Part shown: positions 10,061 through 51,300 of the stretch, one piece after another
Layout of the letters: each line of letters starts with the position of its first letter
How positions within the stretch are numbered: the first letter of the stretch is position 1
From: an uncultured Lachnospiraceae bacterium
GTDB taxonomy: Bacteria > Bacillota > Clostridia > Lachnospirales > Lachnospiraceae
Length of the DNA: 64,000 nucleotides
Assembly (NCBI GenBank): GCA_910578605.1
Contig: CAJTQG010000007.1
Location: 1,577 to 65,576, forward strand
Reading direction: 5' to 3'
Program-made: the position numbers and the translations under genes
The notes under the pieces: model-generated
Databases searched by the model: none
What the model saw: only the letters and a program-made list of their open reading frames with translations
What the model was told of the DNA's origin: nothing

Positions 10061-11599
10061 CTATTGGCTCTCTGGGCTCATAATTAACTCTACCTGGAAT
10101 ACTTTGTCCTGCCCAGGTACAACCTTATACGCCTCACTTAGCCGATAACCTATCACCCATATTATTTCACTTCCATCTGCTAACAACAATATATCATCTC
10201 GTTTTTCTGCGGGAATTTTACAATCAATAAAAAAATCCTTTAATTTCTTGTGCCCGCCAGACTTACAAACCGCAATCATATCCTTGCTTCTTCGAGTTCT
10301 AATTTGCAGACTATTTTTAATCTTATCACAATTCAGCCATTTCGTATAGGTATTTTCTGGGAAAATCACATTTTTTTCCTGAATTTTTTTTTCACAATAC
10401 CGAAAAACTGCCTCTGCCTCAGGTATATATACTTCTCCTGACATCCTTCCTTGTTCTAAAACAATCTCTACAACCTTGTTATTTTGCCGATTATTTTTCT
10501 TTTTATTCTCTTCTAAATCCCTTTTCAATGGGATTTCTTTCATTATACTATGAATCACTATATTTTTATCTATTTTCTTATCTATTGATTTTTTTTCTCC
10601 ACAAACATCCTTTATATTGGTCTTATAAAAAAAGATTTGCTCATATCCCACTCTTCCACGAACAAAATGAGGAAAATCCACAATACTTCCTGTTCTCCCC
10701 CTAAGCATAGCCACTGCCTGTACAATATGCACCATTGACACATCCTTTATCTTTCCCCCTGTACATTCCAGCGCCCTGCGCATCACACCTGACTGTATTG
10801 CCCCCGGCATCCCCCCAAGCTTTTTCTTATCAATTTCTAGTTCACCATTCCTATTCCATTTGCTCATCAAGACAAAAGCTTCCTCTATGCGTTCCTCCAT
10901 ATAATCCTGTATCTGCCTTTGCTGCCATGCCGCCTGAAGGACATGCTGACCTGCCTTGGCATTGACATTCTCTTCAAGCCATGGAAGCAATTGATTTCTT
11001 ATGCGGTTCCTCATATAAATATCCATTGCATTTGTAGAATCACTGCAATAGGAAATTTGATTTTCTTCTAACTCCTGCACAATTTCATTTTTTGTACAAA
11101 ACAGCAGAGGGCGGATAAGCTCTCCACTGACTGGCGCCATACCGCACAGTCCTTTGCTCCCACTCCCCCGAAACAAGTTCATCAAAACTGTCTCTATCTG
11201 GTCATCTCCGTGATGTGCTACCGCTATCCTGTCACAGCCATACTTTTTTGCAGTTGCCCTCATATGACGATAGCGCAGTATTCTCCCTGCCTCCTCATGA
11301 CTTATTTTATGTGTGCGGGCATATTTTGGAACATCCTCCAATCTCTCATAATATTGGATTCCCCACTTAGCACACAGCTCCTTGGCATAAGCTCTATCCC
11401 TGTCTGCCTCCTCCCCCCTGATGCCATGGTGCATATGGAACGCACACACCGAAAAATCATATTTGCCGCTCAGCCTAAAAAGCAATAAAAGCAGACAGAC
11501 AGAATCAGCGCCCCCGGACAAACCTACGAGAACGCTGCTTCCTGCTGCTACCATTTGATACTGCTCACATGTATTCCAAACCTTTTCTTCCAGATTCAT
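10061..11599 (-). CDS. tilS: tRNA(Ile)-lysidine synthetase
   Basis: SGGADS PP-loop motif near the N-terminus. The position upstream of ftsH matches conserved tilS-(hprT)-ftsH synteny. Confidence 0.85.
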   Translation of the reverse strand: MNLEEKVWNTCEQYQMVAAGSSVLVGLSGGADSVCLLLLLFRLSGKYDFSVCAFHMHHGIRGEEADRDRAYAKELCAKWGIQYYERLEDVPKYARTHKISHEEAGRILRYRHMRATAKKYGCDRIAVAHHGDDQIETVLMNLFRGSGSKGLCGMAPVSGELIRPLLFCTKNEIVQELEENQISYCSDSTNAMDIYMRNRIRNQLLPWLEENVNAKAGQHVLQAAWQQRQIQDYMEERIEEAFVLMSKWNRNGELEIDKKKLGGMPGAIQSGVMRRALECTGGKIKDVSMVHIVQAVAMLRGRTGSIVDFPHFVRGRVGYEQIFFYKTNIKDVCGEKKSIDKKIDKNIVIHSIMKEIPLKRDLEENKKKNNRQNNKVVEIVLEQGRMSGEVYIPEAEAVFRYCEKKIQEKNVIFPENTYTKWLNCDKIKNSLQIRTRRSKDMIAVCKSGGHKKLKDFFIDCKIPAEKRDDILLLADGSEIIWVIGYRLSEAYKVVPGQDKVFQVELIMSPESQ

Positions 11600-34454: not shown

Positions 34455-34560
34455 TTTAAATGTTTGCGAAACTCCTTCGAAAAAGTTCATAATTGTGCAA
34501 AATTTACAATTTTTGTTAGATGCAATTCGGTTTGTGTTTTAGAAGTTCTTAGTGTTCTTT
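34455..34560. repeat. ~110 bp repeat (copy A), shared with 50715-50830, containing palindrome AATTGTgcaaaatttACAATT
   Basis: aaaagttcataattgtgc[a/g]aaatttacaattt…ttagatgc…gttcttagt[g/a]ttcttt is conserved between the two loci. Both copies lie just 5' of minus-strand gene starts. Confidence 0.5.
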
Positions 34561-34701
34561 ACTTAACATAGCAATATTTGCACACGAGGGGCAAATAAGA
34601 TGACAATTGAGCCATGGAGGGCGAATTGGCATCGGTTGCGTGCTCTTCCAATCAATATGATAAGAACACTTAGTACTTCTTAGACACAATTAGATGCATC
34701 T
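34518..34701. mobile_element. MITE-like element / IS terminal inverted repeat remnant
   Basis: Imperfect ~42 bp inverted repeats (ttagatgca…taagaagt.cttagtgttctt) flank a ~100 bp core with no ORF. Confidence 0.35.
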
Positions 34702-40444: not shown

Positions 40445-40480
40445 AACCATACCACATTACTCATGTAATGTGGTATGGTT
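40445..40480. promoter_or_regulatory. perfect 16 bp inverted repeat (candidate operator)
   Basis: AACCATACCACATTACtcatGTAATGTGGTATGGTT, about 140 bp upstream of the gntR start. Confidence 0.35.
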
Positions 40481-40728
40481 ATTGTAATCCAATTTCTTTT
40501 TTCTGTCAAGCATAGATTTCCATTTACTAATATACTGTTCCATGCACCTTTCCATCTCTTTTCATAAGCAGCCACATAACATGGTTTGCTACACGGAAAC
40601 AACCTTGTAAGTTTTGTGTAGTCTGGCAGGTTATGCCTGTAATAATTTTTTCAAGATTTTGCGTTGATTTAAAAAATACATTACACTATAATGGGCAAGT
40701 TACAAGGGAAAGTTTTTCTTATTCAGTT

Positions 40729-40875
40729 TTAATTCATTCCCACAACCTTATCCAAGAGTTTTGCAGATTCCCGCTTAGCATCTCTTGTAGCGTGTGCATA
40801 GACATTCATGGCAGTGCTTACGTCCGAATGCCCTAAAAGTTCCTGCACGTCTTTTGGCTGCGCCCCGTTTGATAA
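40729..40875 (-). pseudogene. tyrosine integrase C-terminal fragment (Tn916/ICE-type)
   Basis: Minus-strand frame reads …KDVQELLGHSDVSTAMNVYAHATRDAKRESAKLLDKVVGMN*. This covers the catalytic Tyr region only; there is no upstream integrase sequence. Confidence 0.6.
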
Positions 40876-41114
40876 CAGGTTTGTTGTGTAGGTGTGTGTA
40901 GTGGTTGCTTATAGGGAACAAGAGGTTGAAAAATCCGCCAAAGAGAACGATAGATTGCCAGCAACAAATGACGGTTAAGAGCAAGGACCGAAGTGCAAGA
41001 TAATATTTCAATCCTTGCTCTTACATAACAGTTTTTAAATGATGAATATTGAAAAATATGTTATGATAGGTTTGTAGCAGATAGCTTATAGTTTTTGGAG
41101 GAATATATAAAAAT

Positions 41115-41972
41115 ATGGAAAAATGGGACTTGTATACAAAATATAGAGAAAAGACAGGAAAAGAACAGATTCGGGGAGAAAAGATTCCAAACGGTTTCTA
41201 CCATTTGGTAGTGCATGTATGGATACGAAATTGCAAAGGGGAATATCTCATTTCCCAACGTTCAGTTAGCAGACCAACATTTCCGCTTATGTGGGAGTGC
41301 GTTGGAGGTTCTGTTTTGATGGGAGAAAGCAGTATTGATGGAGCACTTAGAGAAGTAAATGAAGAAGTGGGACTGGATTTACAACCCGAAGCCGGAAAAC
41401 TTCTTTTTACTAAAATCCGAGGCACTGATATTAAATATGAATGCAAAGAATTTAATGATATTATGGATGTATGGCTTTTTGAATACGATGGAGACCTGCA
41501 TTTGGAAGATGCAACAACGGATGAAGTTGCTGACTGTAAATGGATGACAGTTTCTGAGATTAGAAAGTTATATGAAAACAAGAAGCTTGTGCAGACATTG
41601 GACTATTTTTTCTGTGTTATGGAAGCAGATGAACCGGATTACAGCTATATTATTGGGAAAATGGTAGACGGAACTGTTGACAGACCATTAGGCACCGCTC
41701 ATCCTCGTCATTCAGAGATGATTTATCCAATCAATTATGGATATGTAAATAATGTACTTGCTGGTGATGGAGCAGAACAAGATGTTTATATATTTGGAAA
41801 AAATAAACCGCTGAAGAGTTTTCGTGGCAAAGTAGTCGCAGTATGGCATCGTTTTGACGATGTGGAGGATAAGTGGATTGTGTCTTTGAATGGAGAAGAT
41901 ATTGCAGAAGAGAAAATATTAGGTGACATTTCATTTCAAGAGCAGTTTTTCTATGGGAAATTGTATAAATAA
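41115..41972 (+). CDS. NUDIX hydrolase fusion protein
   Basis: Nudix box GGSVLMGESSIDGALREVNEEVG, with an unassigned ~130 aa C-terminal domain. Confidence 0.65.
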   Translation: MEKWDLYTKYREKTGKEQIRGEKIPNGFYHLVVHVWIRNCKGEYLISQRSVSRPTFPLMWECVGGSVLMGESSIDGALREVNEEVGLDLQPEAGKLLFTKIRGTDIKYECKEFNDIMDVWLFEYDGDLHLEDATTDEVADCKWMTVSEIRKLYENKKLVQTLDYFFCVMEADEPDYSYIIGKMVDGTVDRPLGTAHPRHSEMIYPINYGYVNNVLAGDGAEQDVYIFGKNKPLKSFRGKVVAVWHRFDDVEDKWIVSLNGEDIAEEKILGDISFQEQFFYGKLYK

Positions 41973-42009
41973 TATTAAATTGCAATTGGTATTTATGGAA
42001 TAGGAGAGG

Positions 42010-42453
42010 ATGCCCCGTATGGTTAGAGAAATAGAAAAAAATGATTTAGAAGGTTTATTAAGATTGTATATGCAGCTACATAATAATCCCCTGCCGGAAA
42101 AGACCGCAGAAATATTGCAGATTTGGGATACCATTTTTCAGGATGAAAACCATCATGTGATTGTTGCAGAGGAAAATGGAAAAATCGTATCTTCCTGTGT
42201 CTGTGTTATTATTCCTAACCTGACGCACAACCAGCAACCCTATGCTTTTATTGAAAATGTGATAACGGATGAAAAGTTTAGAAAAAGAGGACTGGCAACG
42301 CAATGCTTAGACTATGCAAAAGAGATTGCCATAAAAGAAAACTGCTATAAAATGATGTTGCTCACAGGTTCTAAGAAAAAAAGTACATTGGATTTTTACA
42401 GAAAGGCAGGGTACAACAGTGACGATAAAACAGCATTTATTCAATGGATATAA
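42010..42453 (+). CDS. GNAT family N-acetyltransferase
   Basis: 147 aa with the GNAT fold motif (RKRGLATQCLDYA). Confidence 0.7.
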   Translation: MPRMVREIEKNDLEGLLRLYMQLHNNPLPEKTAEILQIWDTIFQDENHHVIVAEENGKIVSSCVCVIIPNLTHNQQPYAFIENVITDEKFRKRGLATQCLDYAKEIAIKENCYKMMLLTGSKKKSTLDFYRKAGYNSDDKTAFIQWI

Positions 42454-42820
42454 CGTGGCAAAGGAAACGCGTGACTTGTATTTTGAAATTCAAAACCTAA
42501 ATCGGGCAACAATAAAGTATGCTGCTGATATAATTAAAGTCGGGATGAATCTATCGGATATTAATACATTGTGTGAAAATTATTTGTTGGAACATGGTGC
42601 AGATTCATTTTGGTATTGGGATGTTGGTGTGTTTGTTTTTGCGGGAGATGAAACTGCTGTTTCCATATCAGGCAAAGATTATAAAGTATTGGAAGAACAG
42701 ACTACAAAAATTTTTCTTACCATAGTTCAAGTCTATCTTCTGAGTCAATCCGCAGGATATACCCGTCAAAGGTGGTTATATCAACACTGTTGTGGTACAT
42801 ATCGTATTCTGCATATATGA
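42419..42820 (+). CDS. hypothetical protein, possibly a truncated fragment
   Basis: The ORF overlaps the previous gene and ends at the repeat-rich element boundary; no confident motif. Confidence 0.2.
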   Translation: MTIKQHLFNGYNVAKETRDLYFEIQNLNRATIKYAADIIKVGMNLSDINTLCENYLLEHGADSFWYWDVGVFVFAGDETAVSISGKDYKVLEEQTTKIFLTIVQVYLLSQSAGYTRQRWLYQHCCGTYRILHI

Positions 42821-42949
42821 ATCTCATATCCTATCTGTCCTTTCTTAGTTAATTATATTTTGGAGCAATTTTAGAAAGCATTTCAATTAGTTCTTCCTGT
42901 CCTGTTCATTTCATGTTATAATTTGTTACAGGTTTTTCTTTCCCTTATT

Positions 42950-43110
42950 TTTGCCCTTATGAGGGTTCGTAACATGAGGGAAAAGGATATAACACAAGGG
43001 AAAGCATAAGGGCAAACTCACTTGCTATAAATTTAGCGTTTTCAAGGGATTTTGACCGTTTAATGCTCAAGCCTTACGTTTTGCCCTTACGAGCAGAAAC
43101 AAGGGCAAAT
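42950..43110. repeat. arm-like short inverted/direct repeats (TTTGCCCTTATG / CATAAGGGCAAA) adjacent to integrase fragment
   Basis: tttttgcccttatgag…cataagggcaaa…ttttgcccttacgag…aagggcaaa. A related block lies at 46010-46130. Confidence 0.4.
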
Positions 43111-43112
43111 AT

Positions 43113-43190
43113 TTTACTGCCCGACTACCATATCCAGAAGTTTAGCGGATTTTTTCTTCACCTCCCTTGTGGCGTGGGCATAGACATTCA
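43113..43190 (-). pseudogene. tyrosine integrase C-terminal fragment (second copy)
   Basis: MNVYAHATREVKKKSAKLLDMVVGQ*, homologous to the fragment at 40729-40875. Confidence 0.5.
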
Positions 43191-43232
43191 TCGATAGACA
43201 TAGAAAAACCGCCGTTATAGTGTTATCCATAA
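43190..43232 (-). terminator. intrinsic terminator after ABC permease gene
   Basis: Minus strand: GCCGCCGTTATggataacactATAACGGCGG followed by TTTTTCT. Confidence 0.5.
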
Positions 43233-43254
43233 CGGCGGCATACATTTCCCCCTG

Positions 43255-44403
43255 TTACTCAATCATAATTTCCTTGATAGAAATCTTCTTAATTTTTTCG
43301 GAATATACATACATCAGAATTTCATAAATCGTGATAAAACAAACAAGAGAAATAAGCATAACAGGAAAGTCAAATTTATATGTAGGTACACCCTCAACAT
43401 CCTTAAATACAATATCCACCATAAGCCTCAACAATCCATACTGATATACTGTCCCAATTATAAAACCAATATAGGACATCGGTCTGTATCCTCCTAAAAT
43501 TGCCCTGCAACATTCTTTCTGCGAATAGCCGAATACCCTCATCATAGCAATAGTTTTTGTATTTCCGTTTATTACTGTAGTTATAGCAAGAAACAGAGTT
43601 GTAAACGCTAATACAAGTCCAATGACCAGCATCATCACACCCATCATTTCACTTGATAAATCTTTCATACTAAACGACATTTGTGTCATAGCTGAAAAGC
43701 AAAACGAAGCAAAAATAATGAAAAATACAAGTGCCTTTTTAGATTTCAAGGTATTCCTTTTCAAATCCTCTACAAACGACAATTCTCTGTTTTTTTCGAT
43801 TCTGTGATTTGGTGTTTTAGAAGCAGTTTGTGGATTATCTTTCAAAAGCAACAACACAGGCTTTTTTAATTTGTACCAAGCGTAATAAACCGAAAGTGCC
43901 GAAAAATACACAGTCGGCAATACCACGAAATAAAATAAAATGATTGGATGAAAATTTATAGTTATCTCAGGAAGCATTTTATCTTCATTTTGTAGAGCGT
44001 AAAACCATGGCATTATAATAAATGCTCCTCCATATCCGATTGCAGTTCCGATAAAAGTACTAATTCCAAATACCCAAAAGCTTTTTGCAATTTTGATATT
44101 TGAATATCCCAATGCCTTTAATATCCCAAGTTCCTTCTTATGTGTGTCAATATAATGCTTAATATAAAACAACAACATAACAACCGCAGTTAAAAGCAAG
44201 CATCCGCCACTTACAAGACAAACGACTTTTGCGGTAGAAACCTGAGCATTATAAAAAAACATTGATAATTCAGATGTTATTTCACTCTCAATTAACCGAA
44301 CATCAAAATAAAAGTTCAGAAACATTGTACAAACAAGCACAGCACAACAGGCGATAATGGAAATGCCGATGAGTTTTGAAACATTTTTTATTCCAACGAG
44401 CAT
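43255..44403 (-). CDS. ABC transporter permease (FtsX-like)
   Basis: 382 aa polytopic protein with FtsX-type helices; downstream of the MacB/LolD-like ATPase. Confidence 0.7.
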   Translation of the reverse strand: MLVGIKNVSKLIGISIIACCAVLVCTMFLNFYFDVRLIESEITSELSMFFYNAQVSTAKVVCLVSGGCLLLTAVVMLLFYIKHYIDTHKKELGILKALGYSNIKIAKSFWVFGISTFIGTAIGYGGAFIIMPWFYALQNEDKMLPEITINFHPIILFYFVVLPTVYFSALSVYYAWYKLKKPVLLLLKDNPQTASKTPNHRIEKNRELSFVEDLKRNTLKSKKALVFFIIFASFCFSAMTQMSFSMKDLSSEMMGVMMLVIGLVLAFTTLFLAITTVINGNTKTIAMMRVFGYSQKECCRAILGGYRPMSYIGFIIGTVYQYGLLRLMVDIVFKDVEGVPTYKFDFPVMLISLVCFITIYEILMYVYSEKIKKISIKEIMIE

Positions 44404-44407
44404 ACCA

Positions 44408-45100
44408 TCACCACCCTATCTCATAAGCGGTCTTTTGTGCTTCATTTGTATAAATTTCAAATATTTTTCCACTATTCATTTTTATAACTGTGTTTGCCAT
44501 TTCCGCAATATTCAAATTGTGCGTTACCATTACGATTGTAAAATCATATTCCTTATGAAGTTTATAGATATAATCAAGAACCTGTCGTCCTGTTTGTTCG
44601 TCTAATGCTCCTGTCGGTTCATCAAGAAATAATACTCTCGGTCTTTTTGCCAAAGCTCTTGCAATAGATACTCTTTGCTGTTCGCCACCCGAAAGTTCGC
44701 TGGGATATTTATGTAGTTTTTCTCCGAGTCCCACCGCTTCAATGACAGTTTTATAATCTTTATTATTTGCTAAATCAGCACCCATTTTCACATTTTTATC
44801 AACGCTCATATTGGGCAGCAAATAATACTGCTGAAAAATAAATCCGACATTTTCCTTACGAAATGAAGTTACTTCATTATCAGAAAGTGCTGTAATATCC
44901 TTTCCGTCATAAAACACTTTACCGCTGTCAGGGCGTTCAAGACCTGAAATTACATTCAAAAAGGTTGACTTGCCAGAACCCGACGCGCCGAGAATAACCA
45001 CAAAATCATTATCCTCAATATCAAGACTGATGTCCTTTAATACTTGAAATCGGCTTTCTCCGTTTCCGTATGATTTTATTATATTTCTCGCTTTAATCAT
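44408..45100 (-). CDS. ABC transporter ATP-binding protein (MacB/LolD-like)
   Basis: Walker A GASGSGKST, an LSGGEQQRV signature, and Walker B LFLDEPTGALD. Confidence 0.85.
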   Translation of the reverse strand: MIKARNIIKSYGNGESRFQVLKDISLDIEDNDFVVILGASGSGKSTFLNVISGLERPDSGKVFYDGKDITALSDNEVTSFRKENVGFIFQQYYLLPNMSVDKNVKMGADLANNKDYKTVIEAVGLGEKLHKYPSELSGGEQQRVSIARALAKRPRVLFLDEPTGALDEQTGRQVLDYIYKLHKEYDFTIVMVTHNLNIAEMANTVIKMNSGKIFEIYTNEAQKTAYEIGW

Positions 45101-45674
45101 TATTTTCCTCCTCCTTTATCTTTTTCAAAATGCTCATACATACCTCAGTAATCATTGTACTGATTTCTTCGTCTGTAAAGCGGCACATTTTTGTGGCACA
45201 AAGCGATGCAATTCCGTGTGTATATATCCAAAGATGATGATATAATTTTTTCGCAGATGCCTTGCAAATTTTGTAATCATCTTGAATTGACAATAGAATT
45301 TGCTCATAACTTTCATCTATCAGCAAAAGTACACCTGATAAGTCGGGAATTTGTTTTTGCTCCGTCATAAAGAGGAGCTGAAAAAGTTTTGACTCATTAA
45401 CAGAAAAAAGAATATATTGCGTACCTACGCCTTTGAAAGGGTGCGCCGCTGCTAAACCTTTATTGACATATTCTTTATACAAAGTTTTAGCTGCCTCAAT
45501 CATAGCCTGCTGAACTTCTTCCATATTTTTGAATACAGTAAAAATCGGTCTTGCTGAGCTAGCCAGGTATGTTCCCAATGCTCTGGAAGTTAAAGCTTCA
45601 TATCCGTCTGTCCTGACAATATTTAATGCGGCTTCTATAATTTCTGCTTTTGTAAATTTTGCTTTCGGTGGCAT
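45093..45674 (-). CDS. TetR/AcrR family transcriptional regulator
   Basis: N-terminal TetR HTH (FTKAEIIEAALNIVRTDGYEALTSRALGTYL). It overlaps the ATPase start, consistent with an operon. Confidence 0.8.
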   Translation of the reverse strand: MPPKAKFTKAEIIEAALNIVRTDGYEALTSRALGTYLASSARPIFTVFKNMEEVQQAMIEAAKTLYKEYVNKGLAAAHPFKGVGTQYILFSVNESKLFQLLFMTEQKQIPDLSGVLLLIDESYEQILLSIQDDYKICKASAKKLYHHLWIYTHGIASLCATKMCRFTDEEISTMITEVCMSILKKIKEEENND

Positions 45675-46219
45675 ACTCTATTTCTCCTTTTATTAAATCA
45701 CTTGTTTTAAATCACATGATTTAATTATAATCAAAGCCGTCCTAAAAGTCAATAAGGCAGCAGAGAATACTCCCTGCCGCCTTATTGGCTGTTTATACTA
45801 AGATGATGTCCCCATACGTCTATTGGCTGTTCTTTCTCGGCGGGTAAAACAAGACAAGGAGTATAATAATCTCCTTGCAGTTCATACCACAGATTATTTT
45901 TATCATCGTAAATGTACTTGTCCATTTTGAAATCCTCCAGTATAATATATTCGCACATATATCACAGTTCTCCGATTGCCATACTTTGTTATATCTTGTT
46001 ATGAGATTTTCTTGCCCTTGATTTTGCCCTTATGAGCAATCAAAGCAAGAGTAACATTGTGTGAAACCATATAAAGGGATAAGGCGATCACATTGCGATA
46101 AATCCTTTGTTTTCAAGGAATTTGTAGGATTTTATTAAAACTCTATGAGGTGTGATAAGCACCTATAGAATCGTTAGTTTATAATCGGGATTTGCAGAGG
46201 TGTTACAAGGAGATATTTT

Positions 46220-47074
46220 ATGGATATTAAAGAAATTATTGAAAATGAATTTAATTTAATCGTTCACAATATTATTGTTTTAGGGCAGGGTCTTGATAGT
46301 ATTGCCTATCTTGTAAATAATGAATACATATTTAAGCAGTCAAAACATGATATAGCAAGAATTAACTTAAAAAAGGAGATGCGGGTATTAAACTATCTAA
46401 AAAATCAAATCACATTACAAATACCAGATATTGAGTATTATAGCGAAGAATATAGTGTTTGTGGTTATAAAGAGATTAAAGGTAATAAGTTGACTCCCAG
46501 TATTTACAAAAGTTTGAGTGATGATGAAAAAGACATATTAGCACAAGACATTGCGTTGTTTCTAAGAGAAATGCATGCTATCCCTTTACCTAATATAGCT
46601 GGACTAGAATTACATGTAATGGATGATTATAGAAGTGATTATGAGACTTTAAGGGAAACCATCTATGATAAAATATCTGATAAATCAAAAGAATATATAG
46701 ATGATTTATATAAAAGAATACTTAATGATGAACGAATCTCTCAATATGTTAAGGCGCTATGTCATAATGATTTGGGCTGTAATCATATCATAATTCAAAA
46801 TAACAAAGCTGTTGGTATAATTGATTTTGGAGATGTTGCTATTACTGACAGAGATAAGGATTTTGTATATTTACTTGAGGATAGCAGTGAGGAAATTGGC
46901 AGAGAATTTGGAATAAAAGTCTTGGAATATTATAATCATCCAAATAAAGAAATACCAATATTAAAAGCAGATTGGAATGATGAGTATTACCCTATTGAAC
47001 AAATTTTAGGGGGACAAGCAATGAAATTAGATGATATGTATAACAAAGGATTAAATAAAATAATAAACATTTGA
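46220..47074 (+). CDS. aminoglycoside phosphotransferase, APH(2'')-like
   Basis: Catalytic loop CHNDLGCNHIII…GIIDFGD and a C-terminal stretch closely resembling APH(2'') enzymes (YLLEDSSEEIG…YYPIEQI). Confidence 0.8.
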   Translation: MDIKEIIENEFNLIVHNIIVLGQGLDSIAYLVNNEYIFKQSKHDIARINLKKEMRVLNYLKNQITLQIPDIEYYSEEYSVCGYKEIKGNKLTPSIYKSLSDDEKDILAQDIALFLREMHAIPLPNIAGLELHVMDDYRSDYETLRETIYDKISDKSKEYIDDLYKRILNDERISQYVKALCHNDLGCNHIIIQNNKAVGIIDFGDVAITDRDKDFVYLLEDSSEEIGREFGIKVLEYYNHPNKEIPILKADWNDEYYPIEQILGGQAMKLDDMYNKGLNKIINI

Positions 47075-47157
47075 ATTGACGCTTAATACCCAAAACCATT
47101 GATGAGTACCACACATTCCCATTTATTAAATTGGCAGCAATGAGGTTTTACATAGAT

Positions 47158-47577
47158 ATGGATTATAAAATTCGAGAAATTAGAAAAAATGAATATCCAA
47201 TATTATCTGATTTCCTATATGAAATAATTTTTATTCCAAAGGGGATAAATAAGCCGCCAAAATCAATTATAGAACAGCCAAAGTTACAAGTATATATTGA
47301 TGATACAACCCCCTCATTTGCCATATCACTGTATGAAGAATACAGGAATTTGGGCATTGGTACAGCACTTATGGAAGCTATGTTGCAATTTTTAAGAGTG
47401 AAAGGATATAAGCAGACATCTCTATCTGTACAAAAAGCGAATTATTTAGTTCATATGTATAGAAAAGCAGGATTTGAGATGGTTGACGAGAACAAAGAAG
47501 AATACATAACTCTTTTTGGTCATCGTTATATTTTACATTCCATCCTGATGCAATTTCTAATGCGTATTTCTCAGTGA
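47158..47577 (+). CDS. GNAT family acetyltransferase
   Basis: GNAT motif (NLGIGTALMEAML); lies immediately after the APH gene. Confidence 0.6.
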   Translation: MDYKIREIRKNEYPILSDFLYEIIFIPKGINKPPKSIIEQPKLQVYIDDTTPSFAISLYEEYRNLGIGTALMEAMLQFLRVKGYKQTSLSVQKANYLVHMYRKAGFEMVDENKEEYITLFGHRYILHSILMQFLMRISQ

Positions 47578-47724
47578 GAACGGGATAAAAAATAGGCTGT
47601 TCAGATAATCTGGGTGGAAATTTGCTATAATTGCTTTCCTCTATGAGTTTTAATTCTTATGTGCCAATAGGTCTATATAAAATCATTCCGCCATCTCCTC
47701 CATCAATTCAAATTTATAGGATTT

Positions 47725-48396
47725 TCACTGCACTTCCCATTCAAAGTTTTCTTTGCCTGCACCAACTTCAAAATGGTATTTTCCGATACCAAGGTCAATA
47801 CCTGAAAAATGTCCGTCTCCTGCAGAAATAGATACTTTATTACCATTGCCTTTTACAACAAAGGGCTGCTTATTTAACGCTGTAGGTGCATAAAGTAACG
47901 CATTTACGCCATCAACAAACCATTGCGGTGCATTACCGTTATATTCACTGATTTCTGCTGCGGTTTTTGATTTATGGGGAACACCTTGAGTCCCACCGTA
48001 ACCAATCGCAATCACACCGTTTATACGCACATCCTTATTGCTGAGATTTTTTAATGCACCCTTCCTATTAAACATGCCTCCAATCCACCATGTATTAAGT
48101 CCCATCGTTTGAGCATAGAGAATTAAATCCGCACCGCAATAGCCTAATTTTTCGTCAAGTTCGTGAGTATCCATGCCTGCAAGAACAATATAATTGTTTA
48201 CCGTCTTTGAAAGTAATAGTCTTGCCATACCGCTGATACCATCAGAATTATTGACGACTAAGGTAAGGTGAAGATTATATTTTTTATTGTTCTGGACAAT
48301 ACGTTCATTAATCAATTCTACAATATCTGCAGGAATTGCCGTGTTTGTGTATTGTCTTACCATATGCCTTTCTTTGATTGCTTCTTTAATCGTCAT
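47725..48396 (-). CDS. nitroreductase family protein
   Basis: An RBS (GGAGG) favours the start at MTIKEAIKERHMVRQY; nitroreductase-like N-terminus and length (~224 aa). Confidence 0.65.
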   Translation of the reverse strand: MTIKEAIKERHMVRQYTNTAIPADIVELINERIVQNNKKYNLHLTLVVNNSDGISGMARLLLSKTVNNYIVLAGMDTHELDEKLGYCGADLILYAQTMGLNTWWIGGMFNRKGALKNLSNKDVRINGVIAIGYGGTQGVPHKSKTAAEISEYNGNAPQWFVDGVNALLYAPTALNKQPFVVKGNGNKVSISAGDGHFSGIDLGIGKYHFEVGAGKENFEWEVQ

Positions 48397-48555
48397 GTTT
48401 TCCTCCATAAATTTTCGATTTAGTTTCGTATAAAAAACAGGAATTTGATTATCTCTTTTTGTATACAATGATTTCAGACTCAGCACCATTACATCCATAT
48501 TCACATACAAGTAAATAGTTATTATCTGCAACAAGCCCATAGCATCTATCACTAT

Positions 48556-48696
48556 TTATTTTTTTTTACCCCAAACCAACGCATATCTTCTTCTTCCTGT
48601 ATTCCTCCAAACACCGCTAATAATAGATAAACTGCTGAAATATATCCAATTATTATATTTACAAAATAAATAAAAAGACTCTTTAATAATTTCATC
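48556..48696 (-). CDS. small membrane peptide (paralog of 48855-49193, about 46 aa)
   Basis: MKLLKSLFIYFVNIIIGYISAVYLLLAVFGG…; below the ORF-track size cut-off and homologous to the N-terminus of the next small protein. Confidence 0.3.
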   Translation of the reverse strand, partial: DEIIKESFYLFCKYNNWIYFSSLSIISGVWRNTGRRRYALVWGKKK

Positions 48697-48699
48697 TTG

Positions 48700-48790
48700 C
48701 CCTCCCCCTAATTGTACTGTTTAAACAATTTAAAATATTCATAACAAGCTTCCCCATAACTATCTTCTCCATTATATTTTGCCAAACTTA
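48700..48790 (-). pseudogene. 3'-terminal gene fragment (duplicate of the end of 49205-50683)
   Basis: Encodes …KIAKYNGEDSYGEACYEYFKLFKQYN*, matching the last ~25 aa of the neighbouring secreted protein. The upstream frame is broken. Confidence 0.45.
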
Positions 48791-48854
48791 TGCAATTTTC
48801 CTTTTACAATAGACATTCTTACTTTTCATAATCTAATAGTTTAAAACAATACAC

Positions 48855-49193
48855 TTAAATATAATACCAGTATATTACTCCTAAAATAATACATACTGCT
48901 ATTGGTAAATAGCAAAACAATATATTATTCCACATTATCCTGTTTGCTTCAATAATTTTCATATCTTGACTTAACAATTTGCCTAATCCTACATTAATAA
49001 GATATACTAAAAATATCCAAAACATCAACATTACCACTCCAATCCATCGAAGACCTTCTCCCTCTGGATTATAATAATGAGGACCTTTCAATGTATTTTG
49101 TATAACTAATGTGGAAAATAACAAATAACGTGCTGAAATATAACCTATTAATATATTTAAAAAACAAAAAATCAATTTTTTTCCAACTTTCAT
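48855..49193 (-). CDS. small hydrophobic membrane protein
   Basis: 112 aa with three or four predicted TM helices. Confidence 0.4.
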   Translation of the reverse strand: MKVGKKLIFCFLNILIGYISARYLLFSTLVIQNTLKGPHYYNPEGEGLRWIGVVMLMFWIFLVYLINVGLGKLLSQDMKIIEANRIMWNNILFCYLPIAVCIILGVIYWYYI

Positions 49194-49204
49194 TTCTTCT
49201 CCCT

Positions 49205-50683
49205 CTAATTATTATATTGTTTAAAAATTTTGAAATACTCATAGCAATCTTCCCCATAGCTATCTTCTCCATTATACTTTGCCATAATTTTCTTTAAACT
49301 ACTTACTTTAGCTTTATTTATATTTGATATTCCCAGTTTACATGCCTCATATTTAAGCACATATGCAACAAAGCGAACATTATAAATATTATTATCTTTC
49401 AAAGCAAACCACATTTTTCTTCTCGATTTCCAATCCTGATAGTCATATTTTTGTCCGCCTATTATCCTTCTGATATACAGATAGTTATTTGTAAGAATAG
49501 CAGTTTTAGCAAAAATTTGTCCTAGTCCTGTACTGCTATCCTTTCGCATTGGAACAGGCACAGCTGGTGGAGTCATTAATATTTGTTGATGCCAACTTTT
49601 GTTCATATATATTTCTAATTGTGCTTTATACGCATAATAATTTGTAACTGCTCCATCTGCTATATCATCTAACAAGTTTACGCATGCTAATTCTCTAAAT
49701 AAAACTGATTGAACCATCTCTTTTGGCAAATTTAATATTTTCGCAACATTAGTAATAATTGCATCATATTGTAACACTATATCCACACATTTTTTTGTTG
49801 TCCTCTTTGCAAAATTTTTCTTTTTAGGAAATCTTTTAGCAAATTCTTTATCTAATTTACTGATTAACTGTCCTTTTGACAGCCTGTTTTTATTGGTTGC
49901 CTTTAGCATTGGATAAAATTCCAACTCCATGCCTTCCTCTACTTCCTCTATTTTAATACTTTCCTCACTTTCATCTTCTTCTGGTTCATCTATTGCCTCT
50001 TCTTCTATTATCATATCATGTATGGCAATTTGATACAATTTTACCACACTAATAGTCTTTATGCTTTCTAAACTAATTGTACATTGTCCCTTTGTATCAA
50101 TATTTGCATTATAGCCCAAATTTTTTATTGTATATGTATTGTTATCCTTTTGAACAATCTCTCCTCCCTCCAAAATTCTAACAGAATCTTCTGATTCAAA
50201 GTTCATTATCCAATCTTCCAATGTACTTTCCGAGCAATTGGTTATCACTATCTTATTATCACTTATTTTATACTGAAATTCCGACTCAGGCACCTCCTGC
50301 ACTGCCATCACAAAGTTAATTGTCTGTGGAACATCAAAATCTCCCTTTGCAATCAATCCAATCTCTACCGTTTCTCCTGGCATAATATCCTGATTATAAC
50401 CTGCATTTTTTATGCAATATACTCCATCTGCCAATTTTTCTTCCTCAGCGTTCCATATATTGAGTATTTCTGTCTTCATATTCACACAGAATGCCCAATT
50501 CTCAATGGAATATTTTCCTGTATTGGTAATTGACATCTGTATCTGCTGCTTGTCCTCCCAGCAGCTCACCACTACTGCATTGAACTCATAGCACAAACCA
50601 TCCTCCTGATTCTTTCCATATACAATACATGCATTCAATAAAAATAACAATAAAACAACTAACATTCTCGCTTTCTTCTTCAT
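49205..50683 (-). CDS. secreted protein with tandem N-terminal beta-rich repeats and a possible lysozyme-like (SLT-type) C-terminal domain
   Basis: Signal peptide MKKKARMLVVLLLFLLNACIVYG. Two ~100 aa repeats are present (…NTGKYSIENW… / …IKNLGYNANI…). The C-terminal region has ELACVN…DSSTGLGQIFAKTA, reminiscent of the SLT motif. RBS lies before the ATG at 50683. Confidence 0.5.
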   Translation of the reverse strand: MKKKARMLVVLLLFLLNACIVYGKNQEDGLCYEFNAVVVSCWEDKQQIQMSITNTGKYSIENWAFCVNMKTEILNIWNAEEEKLADGVYCIKNAGYNQDIMPGETVEIGLIAKGDFDVPQTINFVMAVQEVPESEFQYKISDNKIVITNCSESTLEDWIMNFESEDSVRILEGGEIVQKDNNTYTIKNLGYNANIDTKGQCTISLESIKTISVVKLYQIAIHDMIIEEEAIDEPEEDESEESIKIEEVEEGMELEFYPMLKATNKNRLSKGQLISKLDKEFAKRFPKKKNFAKRTTKKCVDIVLQYDAIITNVAKILNLPKEMVQSVLFRELACVNLLDDIADGAVTNYYAYKAQLEIYMNKSWHQQILMTPPAVPVPMRKDSSTGLGQIFAKTAILTNNYLYIRRIIGGQKYDYQDWKSRRKMWFALKDNNIYNVRFVAYVLKYEACKLGISNINKAKVSSLKKIMAKYNGEDSYGEDCYEYFKIFKQYNN

Positions 50684-50714
50684 GGCTCTTCTTTCCTTTC
50701 CCTGTTTCTTTGTT

Positions 50715-50830
50715 ATTAGGCATTGCAAAACACATTCAAAAAGTTCATAATTGTGCGAAATTTACAATTTACATCAGATGCGATAGGATTTGTGATTTAG
50801 ATGTTCTTAGTATTCTTTATTGTATAAGGC
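50715..50830. repeat. ~110 bp repeat (copy B) in the 5' UTR/promoter of the secreted protein gene
   Basis: Homologous to 34455-34560, including the AATTGTGCgAAATTTACAATT palindrome and one TIR-like arm. Confidence 0.5.
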
Positions 50831-50845
50831 AAAATTTACTATACA

Positions 50846-50958
50846 AATAAAAAAGGCTGCAAGAATATAGAAATTCCTGCAACCGAACTATCCTAGGTTA
50901 ATATCCCCCTTAGACTCCCAGCTTTGCGTCCATGCATTTCTGTCATGTTTGCCTTTAG
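50846..50958 (-). promoter_or_regulatory. c-di-GMP-I (GEMM) riboswitch-like leader, copy 3, with intrinsic terminator
   Basis: Minus strand: AAAGGCAAACAUGACAGAAAUGCAUGGACGCAAAGCUGGGAGUCUAAGG…GGUUGCAGGAAUUUCUAUAUUCUUGCAGCC UUUUUU. The hairpin covaries relative to copies 1 and 2. Confidence 0.6.
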
Positions 50959-51300
50959 ATTTTTGTATAGAACAGAACACGCTATTTAATGTTAACATTA
51001 CCCCTCTTTTATGTCAACTACTATTGGCACAATTTGTCAAATATTGTTAACAGTCCAGCCTAGGTCTTTGCATCAATTCATACTTCCACTGAACCATTAC
51101 AAATTCCTGTTACTATTCTCAAAATAATTTGCTTTATCCCTTGCCTTTTCTTTCCATTAGATGTATACTTTGTTCGTTTAAATCTATTGTTTTATATTTG
51201 TTTATATGTAACGATTCAGAACCATGCAGATTTATACAAAACCAACAGTTCCATATTGTTGTTTGTGTTTATCAATACATTGAAGGAGGAACCTCTTCCC

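Follow-up and report, generated by a model that had tools for sequence, protein, structure and literature searches.

Tandems of integrative elements, remnants of such elements and cis-mobilizable elements (CIMEs) have been described in Firmicutes and are reported to be abundant in gut Clostridia (PMC5704250, PMC12084326), and an accretion model has been put forward (Pavlovic et al., 2004; Bellanger et al., 2011, as reviewed in PMC5704250). A second group close to the present subject consists of the MOBQ2 integrative mobilizable elements (IMEs) of Faecalibacterium and Lachnospiraceae, which have a PF03389 relaxase, often have a PF14198 TnpV protein, and are all said to be accompanied by PF12958 (PMC12084326). 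Here we analyse a 64,000-nt stretch of DNA (the window) from an uncultured Lachnospiraceae bacterium (GenBank assembly GCA_910578605.1, contig CAJTQG010000007.1, positions 1,577 to 65,576), which is 99.98% identical to contig CASOQC010000002.1 of the metagenome-assembled genome (MAG) GCA_949417295.1 and for which the nearest named homologues are from Lachnospiraceae. Positions 40604-46196 very probably hold a tandem of two internally deleted IME remnants, E1 (about 40604-43051) and E2 (about 43053-46196), which have one integration-module family in common and lie in the same orientation. An original prediction, made from the letters of the window alone, had read 40729-48800 as a mosaic of decayed integrative elements with resistance-type cargo; it was right in kind, but wrong on the third cargo module, on the right boundary and on the nature of the repeat block at 42930-43110.

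Each remnant lacks relaxase, excisionase and regulator genes and retains of the integrase gene little more than the 3' end. Stub 1 (40729-40896, minus strand), located where it had been predicted but slightly longer, comprises the final 55 codons and the stop (HTYTTNLLSNGAQPKDVQELLGHSDVSTAMNVYAHATRDAKRESAKLLDKVVGMN) and is 94% identical to residues 392-441 of the full-length, 441-aa integrase (Int) of locus L010. Its translation (HTYTTNLL...LGHSDVSTAMNVYAH...VVGMN, then the stop) spans the catalytic-tyrosine region LGHSD...NVYAH, and HTYTTN...LGHSD...NVYAH, the C-terminal His...Tyr region of PF00589, is retained. At E <= 1e-3, stub 1 is matched by 179 database proteins, and nearly all of the 120 listed among these matches contain PF00589. 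Stub 2 (43114-43191, minus strand) holds the final 25 codons and the stop (MNVYAHATREVKKKSAKLLDMVVGQ); it is homologous to stub 1 by tblastn (E = 2e-9) and forms with it a 71-nt direct DNA repeat of 76% identity. The proposal of two short homologous integrase C-terminal fragments is therefore upheld, and both are genuine remnants. Only these 55- and 25-codon 3' stubs remain, and no further copy of this type of integrase occurs anywhere in the window.

Species-representative genomes were probed with the 55-residue stub 1, which gave 80 loci. In this genome scan, the full-length integrase genes encode ~420-470 residues, and the full-length relatives score 96-99 bits on PF00589. Intact relatives measure ~7-8 kb, encode an integrase of ~441-456 aa and follow one order: distal arm, TnpV or DUF6061, cargo slot, relaxase, Tn916-Xis-like excisionase (Xis), helix-turn-helix (HTH) regulator, integrase and proximal arm, with the variable cargo slot flanked on one side by the relaxase gene and on the other by the TnpV or DUF6061 gene, which is small and end-proximal. 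In L010 (Lachnospiraceae bacterium COE1), genes for DUF6061 (2308-2547, PF19537), KilA-N, M24 peptidase, GNAT and NUDIX proteins precede a MobA_MobL relaxase gene, which is followed by those of a Tn916-Xis/HTH_17 excisionase, an HTH_3 regulator and the integrase. L032 has TnpV, ArsR, ArsP, thioredoxin and a low-molecular-weight phosphatase, then a MobA_MobL relaxase, an excisionase, HTH_3 and the integrase. The relaxases score 35.7 bits (L010) and 47.5 bits (L032) on PF03389 (cut-off 26.7), and the excisionases (L010 7732-7962, L032 7699-7950, L012 7726-7956) 32.6-33.2 bits on PF09035 (cut-off 22.9) in addition to an HTH_17 match. This Tn916-Xis-like excisionase is absent from the window and present in the intact relatives only. 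The intact relatives are IMEs, widespread in Lachnospiraceae and Clostridia; in the plasmid collection a single close integrase was found, 70% identical and located on an Agathobacter rectalis replicon.

The integrases of L012 and L010 are 94% identical, while the relaxase gene is of the Mob_Pre (MOBV) type in L012 (5976-7256, minus strand) and of the MobA_MobL (MOBQ) type in L010 (5646-7121, minus strand). This exchange shows module shuffling within the IME family, and since L012 differs in its relaxase and retains the integrase, the Int/Xis/arm module is the constant part: the family is defined by this module and not by relaxase type. The likeness to the MOBQ2 IMEs nevertheless extends to PF03389 (L010, L032), to PF14198 (L032 and a TnpV stub in the window), to similar size and to adaptive cargo. 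The family departs from them in that its integration module also pairs with a MOBV-type relaxase, as in L012. PF12958 (DUF3847) was not found in the small open reading frames (ORFs) that flank the L010 and L032 relaxase genes (E <= 0.1 to 1), a search that took in some but not all of the short ORFs.

The predicted Tn916-type nature of the integrase holds in a loose sense. With Tn916 and Tn1549 the family has in common the catalytic C-terminus of a tyrosine recombinase, a PF09035 excisionase (~33 bits) in the intact relatives and low target specificity. It differs from them in forming small mobilizable units without conjugation genes, with TTKCCCTTR arm repeats and a 12-bp near-palindromic core of their own. 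The best solved relatives of the integrase, PDB 6EMY/6EN0/6EMZ (E = 2e-12, 50 bits), are listed as 'Int protein' and are similar over ~48 C-terminal residues only, that is at the catalytic end. We take these structures to be Tn1549 Int. IME_Rho_tet (PMC12904643) was considered as a relative and rejected; it uses a serine recombinase and is unrelated.

The ends of the elements carry the second line of evidence. The motif TTKCCCTTR is present in 14 copies in the window (4.5 expected) and TTGCCCTTA in 6 (0.97 expected), numbers that neither motif reached in any of 100 shuffles, and 9 of the 14 TTKCCCTTR copies lie within 40703-46032. In agreement with the predicted recurrence at 46010-46130, block 42914-43052 is repeated at 45987-46123 with 75-82% identity. 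Across 72 loci of the family, the 160 nt past the integrase stop contain 15.5 TTKCCCTTR motifs per kb against a background of 0.07 per kb, an enrichment of more than 200-fold in the arms, with usually 3 copies per proximal arm. The family proximal arm extends ~140 nt past the integrase stop, and a core-like AAAYTSSARTTT occurs ~115-139 nt past the stop, at the point where independent insertions diverge. The distal arm (~240 nt) has four TTKCCCTTR copies, an invariant TTTTCAAGG box, which is found in the proximal arm too (alignment A3), and a terminal near-palindrome as at the other end, so that both termini finish in the same type of 12-bp sequence (AAAYTSSARTTT).

Termini were placed where similarity between independent insertions stops (alignments A1, A2 and A3; junctions of L109 and L111, decayed members in which both host junctions are visible). 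Six contigs (L002-L007) have ~145 nt past the integrase stop in common and then continue into six unrelated flanks, which marks an element end and shows low target specificity. The earlier view that the repeat blocks are ends of integrative elements is confirmed. The TTKCCCTTR repeats are putative arm-type integrase sites and the near-palindrome is a putative core. Structured RNA in the repeat blocks was considered and rejected, the Rfam gathering-level matches falling elsewhere in the window.

The match of E1 to L010 is colinear and falls into three pieces. The first, 40691-40896 (L010 10214-10001, 90.7% identity), covers stub 1 and the best-conserved part of the E1 proximal, integrase-side arm (40604-40728, minus strand). 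This arm is decayed: only the first 38 nt past the stop, 40691-40728, are well conserved (blastn to L009-L014 ends at 40691), with a weak continuation in alignments A3 and A4. It keeps one TTKCCCTTR copy (40703-40711) where 3 are usual, and a TTTTCAAGA box (40648-40656). Repeat blocks had been predicted beside each stub; stub 2 has one, but the single surviving motif by stub 1 does not make a block. A possible degenerate terminal core lies at ~40604-40619, with an uncertain outer limit (40580-40620), and 40604-40728 is ~99% conserved in the conspecific contigs L090-L098.

The second piece is the E1 cargo block (40921-42687, plus strand), which is 96.9% identical over 1767 nt to L010 5654-3888. 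By Pfam it contains a NUDIX-pyrophosphatase fusion gene (41115-41972) and a GNAT gene (42010-42453), followed by the first 89 codons of the M24 peptidase gene (42419-42687, in an ORF that continues to 42820), all on the plus strand. The third piece, 42743-43051, corresponds to L010 2392-2083 (88%). It begins in the 5' fragment of a DUF6061 gene (42717-42827, minus strand; homologous to L010 2308-2547 and to the DUF6061 genes of L109 and L111), whose 28 homologous codons occupy 42743-42827 and which is the first gene inward from the E1 distal end. The inner part of the distal arm follows (42828-43052, plus strand; 88% to L010 2392-2083, alignment A2), with four TTKCCCTTR copies (42939, 42951, 42995, 43007) and a TTTTCAAGG box (43040-43048), lacking the outer ~85 nt and the terminal core. 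The L010 counterpart of this arm lies 6.5 kb upstream of the L010 integrase gene.

Two stretches of L010 are missing from E1. One, L010 5735 to ~9995, holds the relaxase, excisionase and regulator genes and integrase codons 1 to ~386; the other, L010 2393-3887, holds the 3' part of DUF6061, KilA-N and the 3' part of the M24 gene. The first corresponds to the E1 deletion junction (40897-40940), identified by comparison with L010 and with the conspecific MAG contig L117, at which ~40 nt of the relaxase gene 3' end are fused to integrase codon ~386. In L117 the relaxase/integrase junction is still the original one; in the window strain, another 65 nt have been lost between TTCAACC repeats (7-bp microhomology). 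E1 is a double-deletion derivative of the element that is intact in Lachnospiraceae bacterium COE1. That the stubs and repeats are chance similarities within an ordinary core genome, a reading for which the only support is the fixation of the array within the species, has almost no probability left: the E-values, the shuffles, the >200-fold motif enrichment in the arms and 96.9% identity over 1767 nt with an element of a different organism already refute it.

E2 begins with the inner part of its proximal arm (43053-43113, minus strand; blastn to ~19 loci over 43079-43191/43193; alignments A1 and A3), with two TTKCCCTTR copies (43081, 43100) and without the outer part and the core. Beyond stub 2 lies a self-contained TetR-ABC-FtsX cargo unit (43244-45810, minus strand), recognized by Pfam as an FtsX permease gene (43255-44403), an ABC ATPase gene (44408-45100, ABC_tran) and a TetR-like regulator gene (45093-45674, weak TetR_N), with a promoter-like site at 45752-45724 and a terminator hairpin at 43239-43208 on the 3' side, all of it read on the minus strand. 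The block is 93% identical over 2567 nt to copies that stand in other contexts in L109 and L111-L113, and 93% identical to a copy in L114 as well; the copies of L109 and L111 lie in other decayed family members with a different arrangement. The 90% cluster of the FtsX permease has 3637 members. The E1 and E2 cargoes are travelling modules, and the prediction of unrelated cargo on adjoining eroded elements, NUDIX/GNAT on one and TetR-ABC-FtsX on the other, is borne out, with one element 88-97% identical, taken segment by segment, to an intact element of another organism.

At its other end, E2 has the 5' fragment of a TnpV gene (45782-45958, minus strand), a 58-codon ORF that matches PF14198 (E = 1.2e-5) and shows TnpV homology in 45867-45958. 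The distal arm that follows (45959-46196, plus strand) is complete: 87.9% identical to L032 3216-2879 (alignment A2), it has two TTKCCCTTR copies (46012, 46024), a TTTTCAAGG box (46111-46119) and the terminal core TAATCGGGATTTGC (46183-46196). The E2 distal end (45807-46144) also matches L055, L030 and L056 at 77-80%. In L030, L032 and L055 a full-length integrase gene starts ~5.1-7.9 kb downstream of the match; in L056, too, the match lies several kb upstream of the integrase gene.

Segment 42930-43110, which had been taken for a single repeat block, consists of two inner arm parts, the distal one of E1 and the proximal one of E2, which meet at one TTTTCAAGG box; both cores are missing. From alignments A2 and A3, a ~150-nt deletion between the two directly repeated TTTTCAAGG boxes of a former tandem junction probably explains the loss of the cores. 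Neighbouring insertions of the family seem frequent, with direct or head-to-head ends: in L010, a second distal arm lies ~650 nt beyond the first element (10970-11336), and in L062 two family arms stand head to head within 1 kb (720-1030 and 1961-2269). Other arrangements of the same parts were also observed. In L109 (8085-11866) and L111 (5140-9620) the TetR-ABC-FtsX block has the opposite orientation relative to the integrase stub, and in L109 a B-type distal arm and an integrase stub of 25 codons are immediate neighbours. Recombination thus combines the building blocks in more than one way.

Among the 80 scan loci, 19 integrase remnants do not abut a contig end, and 12 of the 19 begin in the last ~95 codons; the query of this census was the integrase 3' end, so that the skew to short 3' stubs may in part be a search artefact. 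Scattered integrase breakpoints and one junction with microhomology point to ordinary illegitimate deletion. A shared site-specific breakpoint in the integrase gene was considered and rejected, the breakpoints being scattered from codon 94 to codon 415; the break of L109 lies ~10 nt from that of stub 2, but is joined to a different partner. Genomes of Lachnospiraceae and Oscillospiraceae commonly contain short integrase 3' stubs with an arm kept beside them (scan loci L009-L084). The idea that stub 1 is a functional mini-protein arose because all 120 listed homologues are short; it was rejected, most of the short homologues being contig-end truncations (in look-ups, many of their contigs terminate inside a repeated integrase gene) and full-length genes being present in the genome scan.

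These observations fit a working scheme that draws on known Int/Xis elements and IMEs, with the architecture taken from gene content and conserved ends. In an intact element, Int, aided by Xis, would bind the TTKCCCTTR repeats of both arms and recombine the 12-bp near-palindromic core (AAAYTSSARTTT) of one terminus with that of the other, which would yield an excised circle. The relaxase would nick the origin of transfer (oriT), the circle would pass through the conjugation pore of a helper element, and Int would then insert it at loosely defined sites of the recipient. Two such elements would have come to lie head to tail, either by insertion of one beside the att site of the other or by acquisition as a pair. 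Illegitimate deletions would then have stripped each element of its relaxase, Xis and regulator genes and of the first part of the integrase gene (386 or 416 codons), and a further deletion, probably between the TTTTCAAGG boxes of both arms, would have taken both cores at the E1/E2 junction. What is left comprises the arms, short remains of genes and two cargo units with a potential for expression, NUDIX-pyrophosphatase/GNAT and a TetR-regulated MacB/FtsX-type ABC exporter, in an array that presumably can no longer excise on its own.

The same layout at the same location is found in at least 5 other conspecific assemblies. L116, L117 and L124 keep a 102-residue TnpV at the place of the window's stub, a difference of ~450 nt, and L100 has another TnpV junction, at 45867. 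Short-read contigs of the left flank stop at 40724-40858, inside or at stub 1, as expected because this is repeated DNA. Fixed in the species and older than the sampled strains, the array still goes on losing small pieces. An origin of the E1-E2 pair as one composite, partly decayed unit, acquired by homologous recombination or cis-mobilization from a donor and not by two local insertions, is a possibility that we rate as less likely than not. Transfer of tandems as a composite is documented (PMC5704250), no intermediate state was seen among the conspecific assemblies with their identical layout, and the shared backbone (integrase 3' end, arms, TnpV) offers homology for recombination, and L100 shows a differing TnpV junction; yet the E1-E2 pair occurs in no other genome among the 80 scan loci. 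The predicted hotspot is not shown, integration next to an att site (accretion) or paired acquisition explaining the tandem equally well.

Several points weigh against a tandem of two IME remnants. The left terminus of E1 is too decayed for exact placement. The E1/E2 junction lacks a core, so that site-specific accretion cannot be shown. The nearest relative of E2 is not the same at its two ends (L025 at the integrase stub, L032 at the distal arm), and E2 may therefore itself be recombinant. The binding role of TTKCCCTTR is one that we infer: the conserved arm repeats argue for an N-terminal arm-type DNA-binding domain in the integrase, but PF14657, the N-terminal arm-binding domain, reaches 14.2 bits against a cut-off of 22.3. 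Last, no empty site was found in the species or in relatives, and insertion at the locus is deduced from the element ends only. The search for it looked up the exact proteins of three genes (GntR, 112-aa and ABC ATPase) and two homologues of the ATPase, 83% and 68% identical; these returned only conspecific contigs with the array, contigs broken in the integrase stub or a distant species with different synteny.

The right boundary of the tandem bears on the serial-insertion model of the original prediction, in which three cargo modules, including an APH(2'')-like/GNAT/nitroreductase module, arrived by at least three serial insertions at one hotspot spanning 40729-48800. Two elements do adjoin here, neighbouring insertions are seen in L010 and L062 too, and the APH region is low in G+C (30-34%). 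The APH start codon, however, lies 24 nt outside the terminal core of E2, that is beyond an intact distal terminus (46183-46196), and to the right of the APH gene the window has neither a cluster of arm motifs nor a stub of an integrase, TnpV or DUF6061 gene. The low G+C extends through the neighbouring CBM_2 gene and recurs elsewhere in the window. In every conspecific contig that reaches them, the APH(2'')-like, GNAT and TM1586 nitroreductase genes are present at ~98-99% identity, and there are almost no relatives at >= 90% identity: the 90% clusters of the module proteins count 1 and 32 members, while that of FtsX counts 3637. The module predicted to lie between the scars is therefore conserved conspecific flank. 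Direct-repeat att sites had been expected at 40700 and 48700; the termini lie at ~40604-40620 and 46183-46196, and 48552-48790 is not an att site but a diverged duplicate, the remnant of a tandem paralog array. In view of this, we consider three serial insertions unlikely, and a tandem of two IME remnants ending at 46196 the better description.

The domain calls for the cargo hold by Pfam (NUDIX and pyrophosphatase domain, GNAT, FtsX, ABC_tran, weak TetR_N, APH, GNAT and TM1586 nitroreductase). Its description as resistance-type is a matter of homology only: the APH(2'')-like kinase scores at best 222 bits, against NCBIfam cut-offs of 475 (NF033692) or more, and so falls short of an acquired APH(2''). 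The APH(2'')-like gene seems to be part of a chromosomal flank restricted to the species, without recent mobility. Nor is there support for an outward promoter that would lead out of the distal arm into the APH gene, promoter-like sites being no commoner there than in shuffles.

Compared with the Firmicutes tandems and CIMEs, the two remnants likewise lie side by side in one orientation, with recombination and transfer genes deleted and with ends and adaptive cargo kept. A classic CIME keeps both att sites at a gene-3'-end target, whereas in the window the internal att is destroyed and the left att decayed; the present family moreover inserts at many unrelated sites, as the six flanks of L002-L007 illustrate, and accretion is here what we infer. 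No tRNA or tmRNA target was found within the window. Integration and transfer genes have been lost from the array as from a CIME; its right terminus and arm are complete (46183-46196), its left arm is decayed with a doubtful core, and its junction has no cores. With one att intact, one decayed and the internal one destroyed, the CIME definition applies only doubtfully. Each remnant derives, as expected for an IME, from a discrete, att-bounded unit that is seen intact elsewhere (E1 colinear with L010, the ends of E2 matching the L032 type). Of the relaxase gene, however, a 3' end of ~40 nt persists in E1 and nothing in E2, and the window falls outside the IME definition because it has neither integrase nor relaxase.

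An array that still functions as a CIME or cassette-like system, its arms recombined by an integrase supplied in trans and its cargo exchanged, would account for the complete right terminus and arm, for the wide retention of arms and stubs (the 19 remnants away from contig ends) and for the movement of cargo blocks between family members. We regard it as highly unlikely, because the left arm has 1 of the usual 3 motifs and no convincing core, the internal junction lacks both cores, the window encodes no integrase of the family, and the integrase breakpoints scatter as in illegitimate deletion, one junction having 7-bp microhomology. Equally improbable, in our estimate, is the more specific proposal that the 5.6-kb array or E2 alone is a cassette mobilizable in cis or in trans through the complete right att, a degenerate left site and a cognate Int/Xis supplied by an intact family member elsewhere in the genome or the community, with the stub skew reflecting selection for a functional proximal att and not chance.

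The array is a further and ordinary example of the known tandem-of-remnants pattern, and no new principle is involved. Its value lies mainly in annotation: accessory genes that fill 5.6 kb and seem to have nothing to do with one another can be traced to two particular mobile-element remnants, and mobile cargo (NUDIX/GNAT and the TetR-ABC-FtsX exporter) can be told apart from the APH(2'')-like gene of the flank. The TTKCCCTTR arm repeats, the TTTTCAAGG box and the 12-bp core are landmarks by which members and remnants of this low-specificity IME family can be found, and such remnants escape tools that rely on integrase and relaxase genes.

Some features of the flanks were noted in addition. The window at 48552-49290 and the contigs L100-L108 show a tandem array of 112/114-aa membrane-protein paralogs with the stub of a second CBM_2-like gene; conspecific assemblies differ in copy number, and the version of the window is the shortest. 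Cyclic di-GMP-I (c-di-GMP-I) riboswitches were detected at the Rfam gathering level at 3495-3591, 3807-3910 and 50875-50963 (all minus strand), the first two in tandem, and the third aptamer precedes the gene of a 507-aa CBM_2-domain protein that adjoins the island. A TwoAYGGAY RNA is present at 34527-34694 (plus strand; 97.7 bits against a gathering score of 43). At ~50713-50827 and 34464-34579, the leaders or 5' ends of two genes share ~80% identity over 116 nt; a c-di-GMP riboswitch precedes one of them, and the other adjoins the TwoAYGGAY RNA. The pair was seen indirectly, through conspecific contigs. On the left side, a perfect 14-bp inverted repeat (AACCATACCACATTAC...TAATGTGGTATGGTT) is found at 40455-40490, between the GntR start and the decayed arm of E1.

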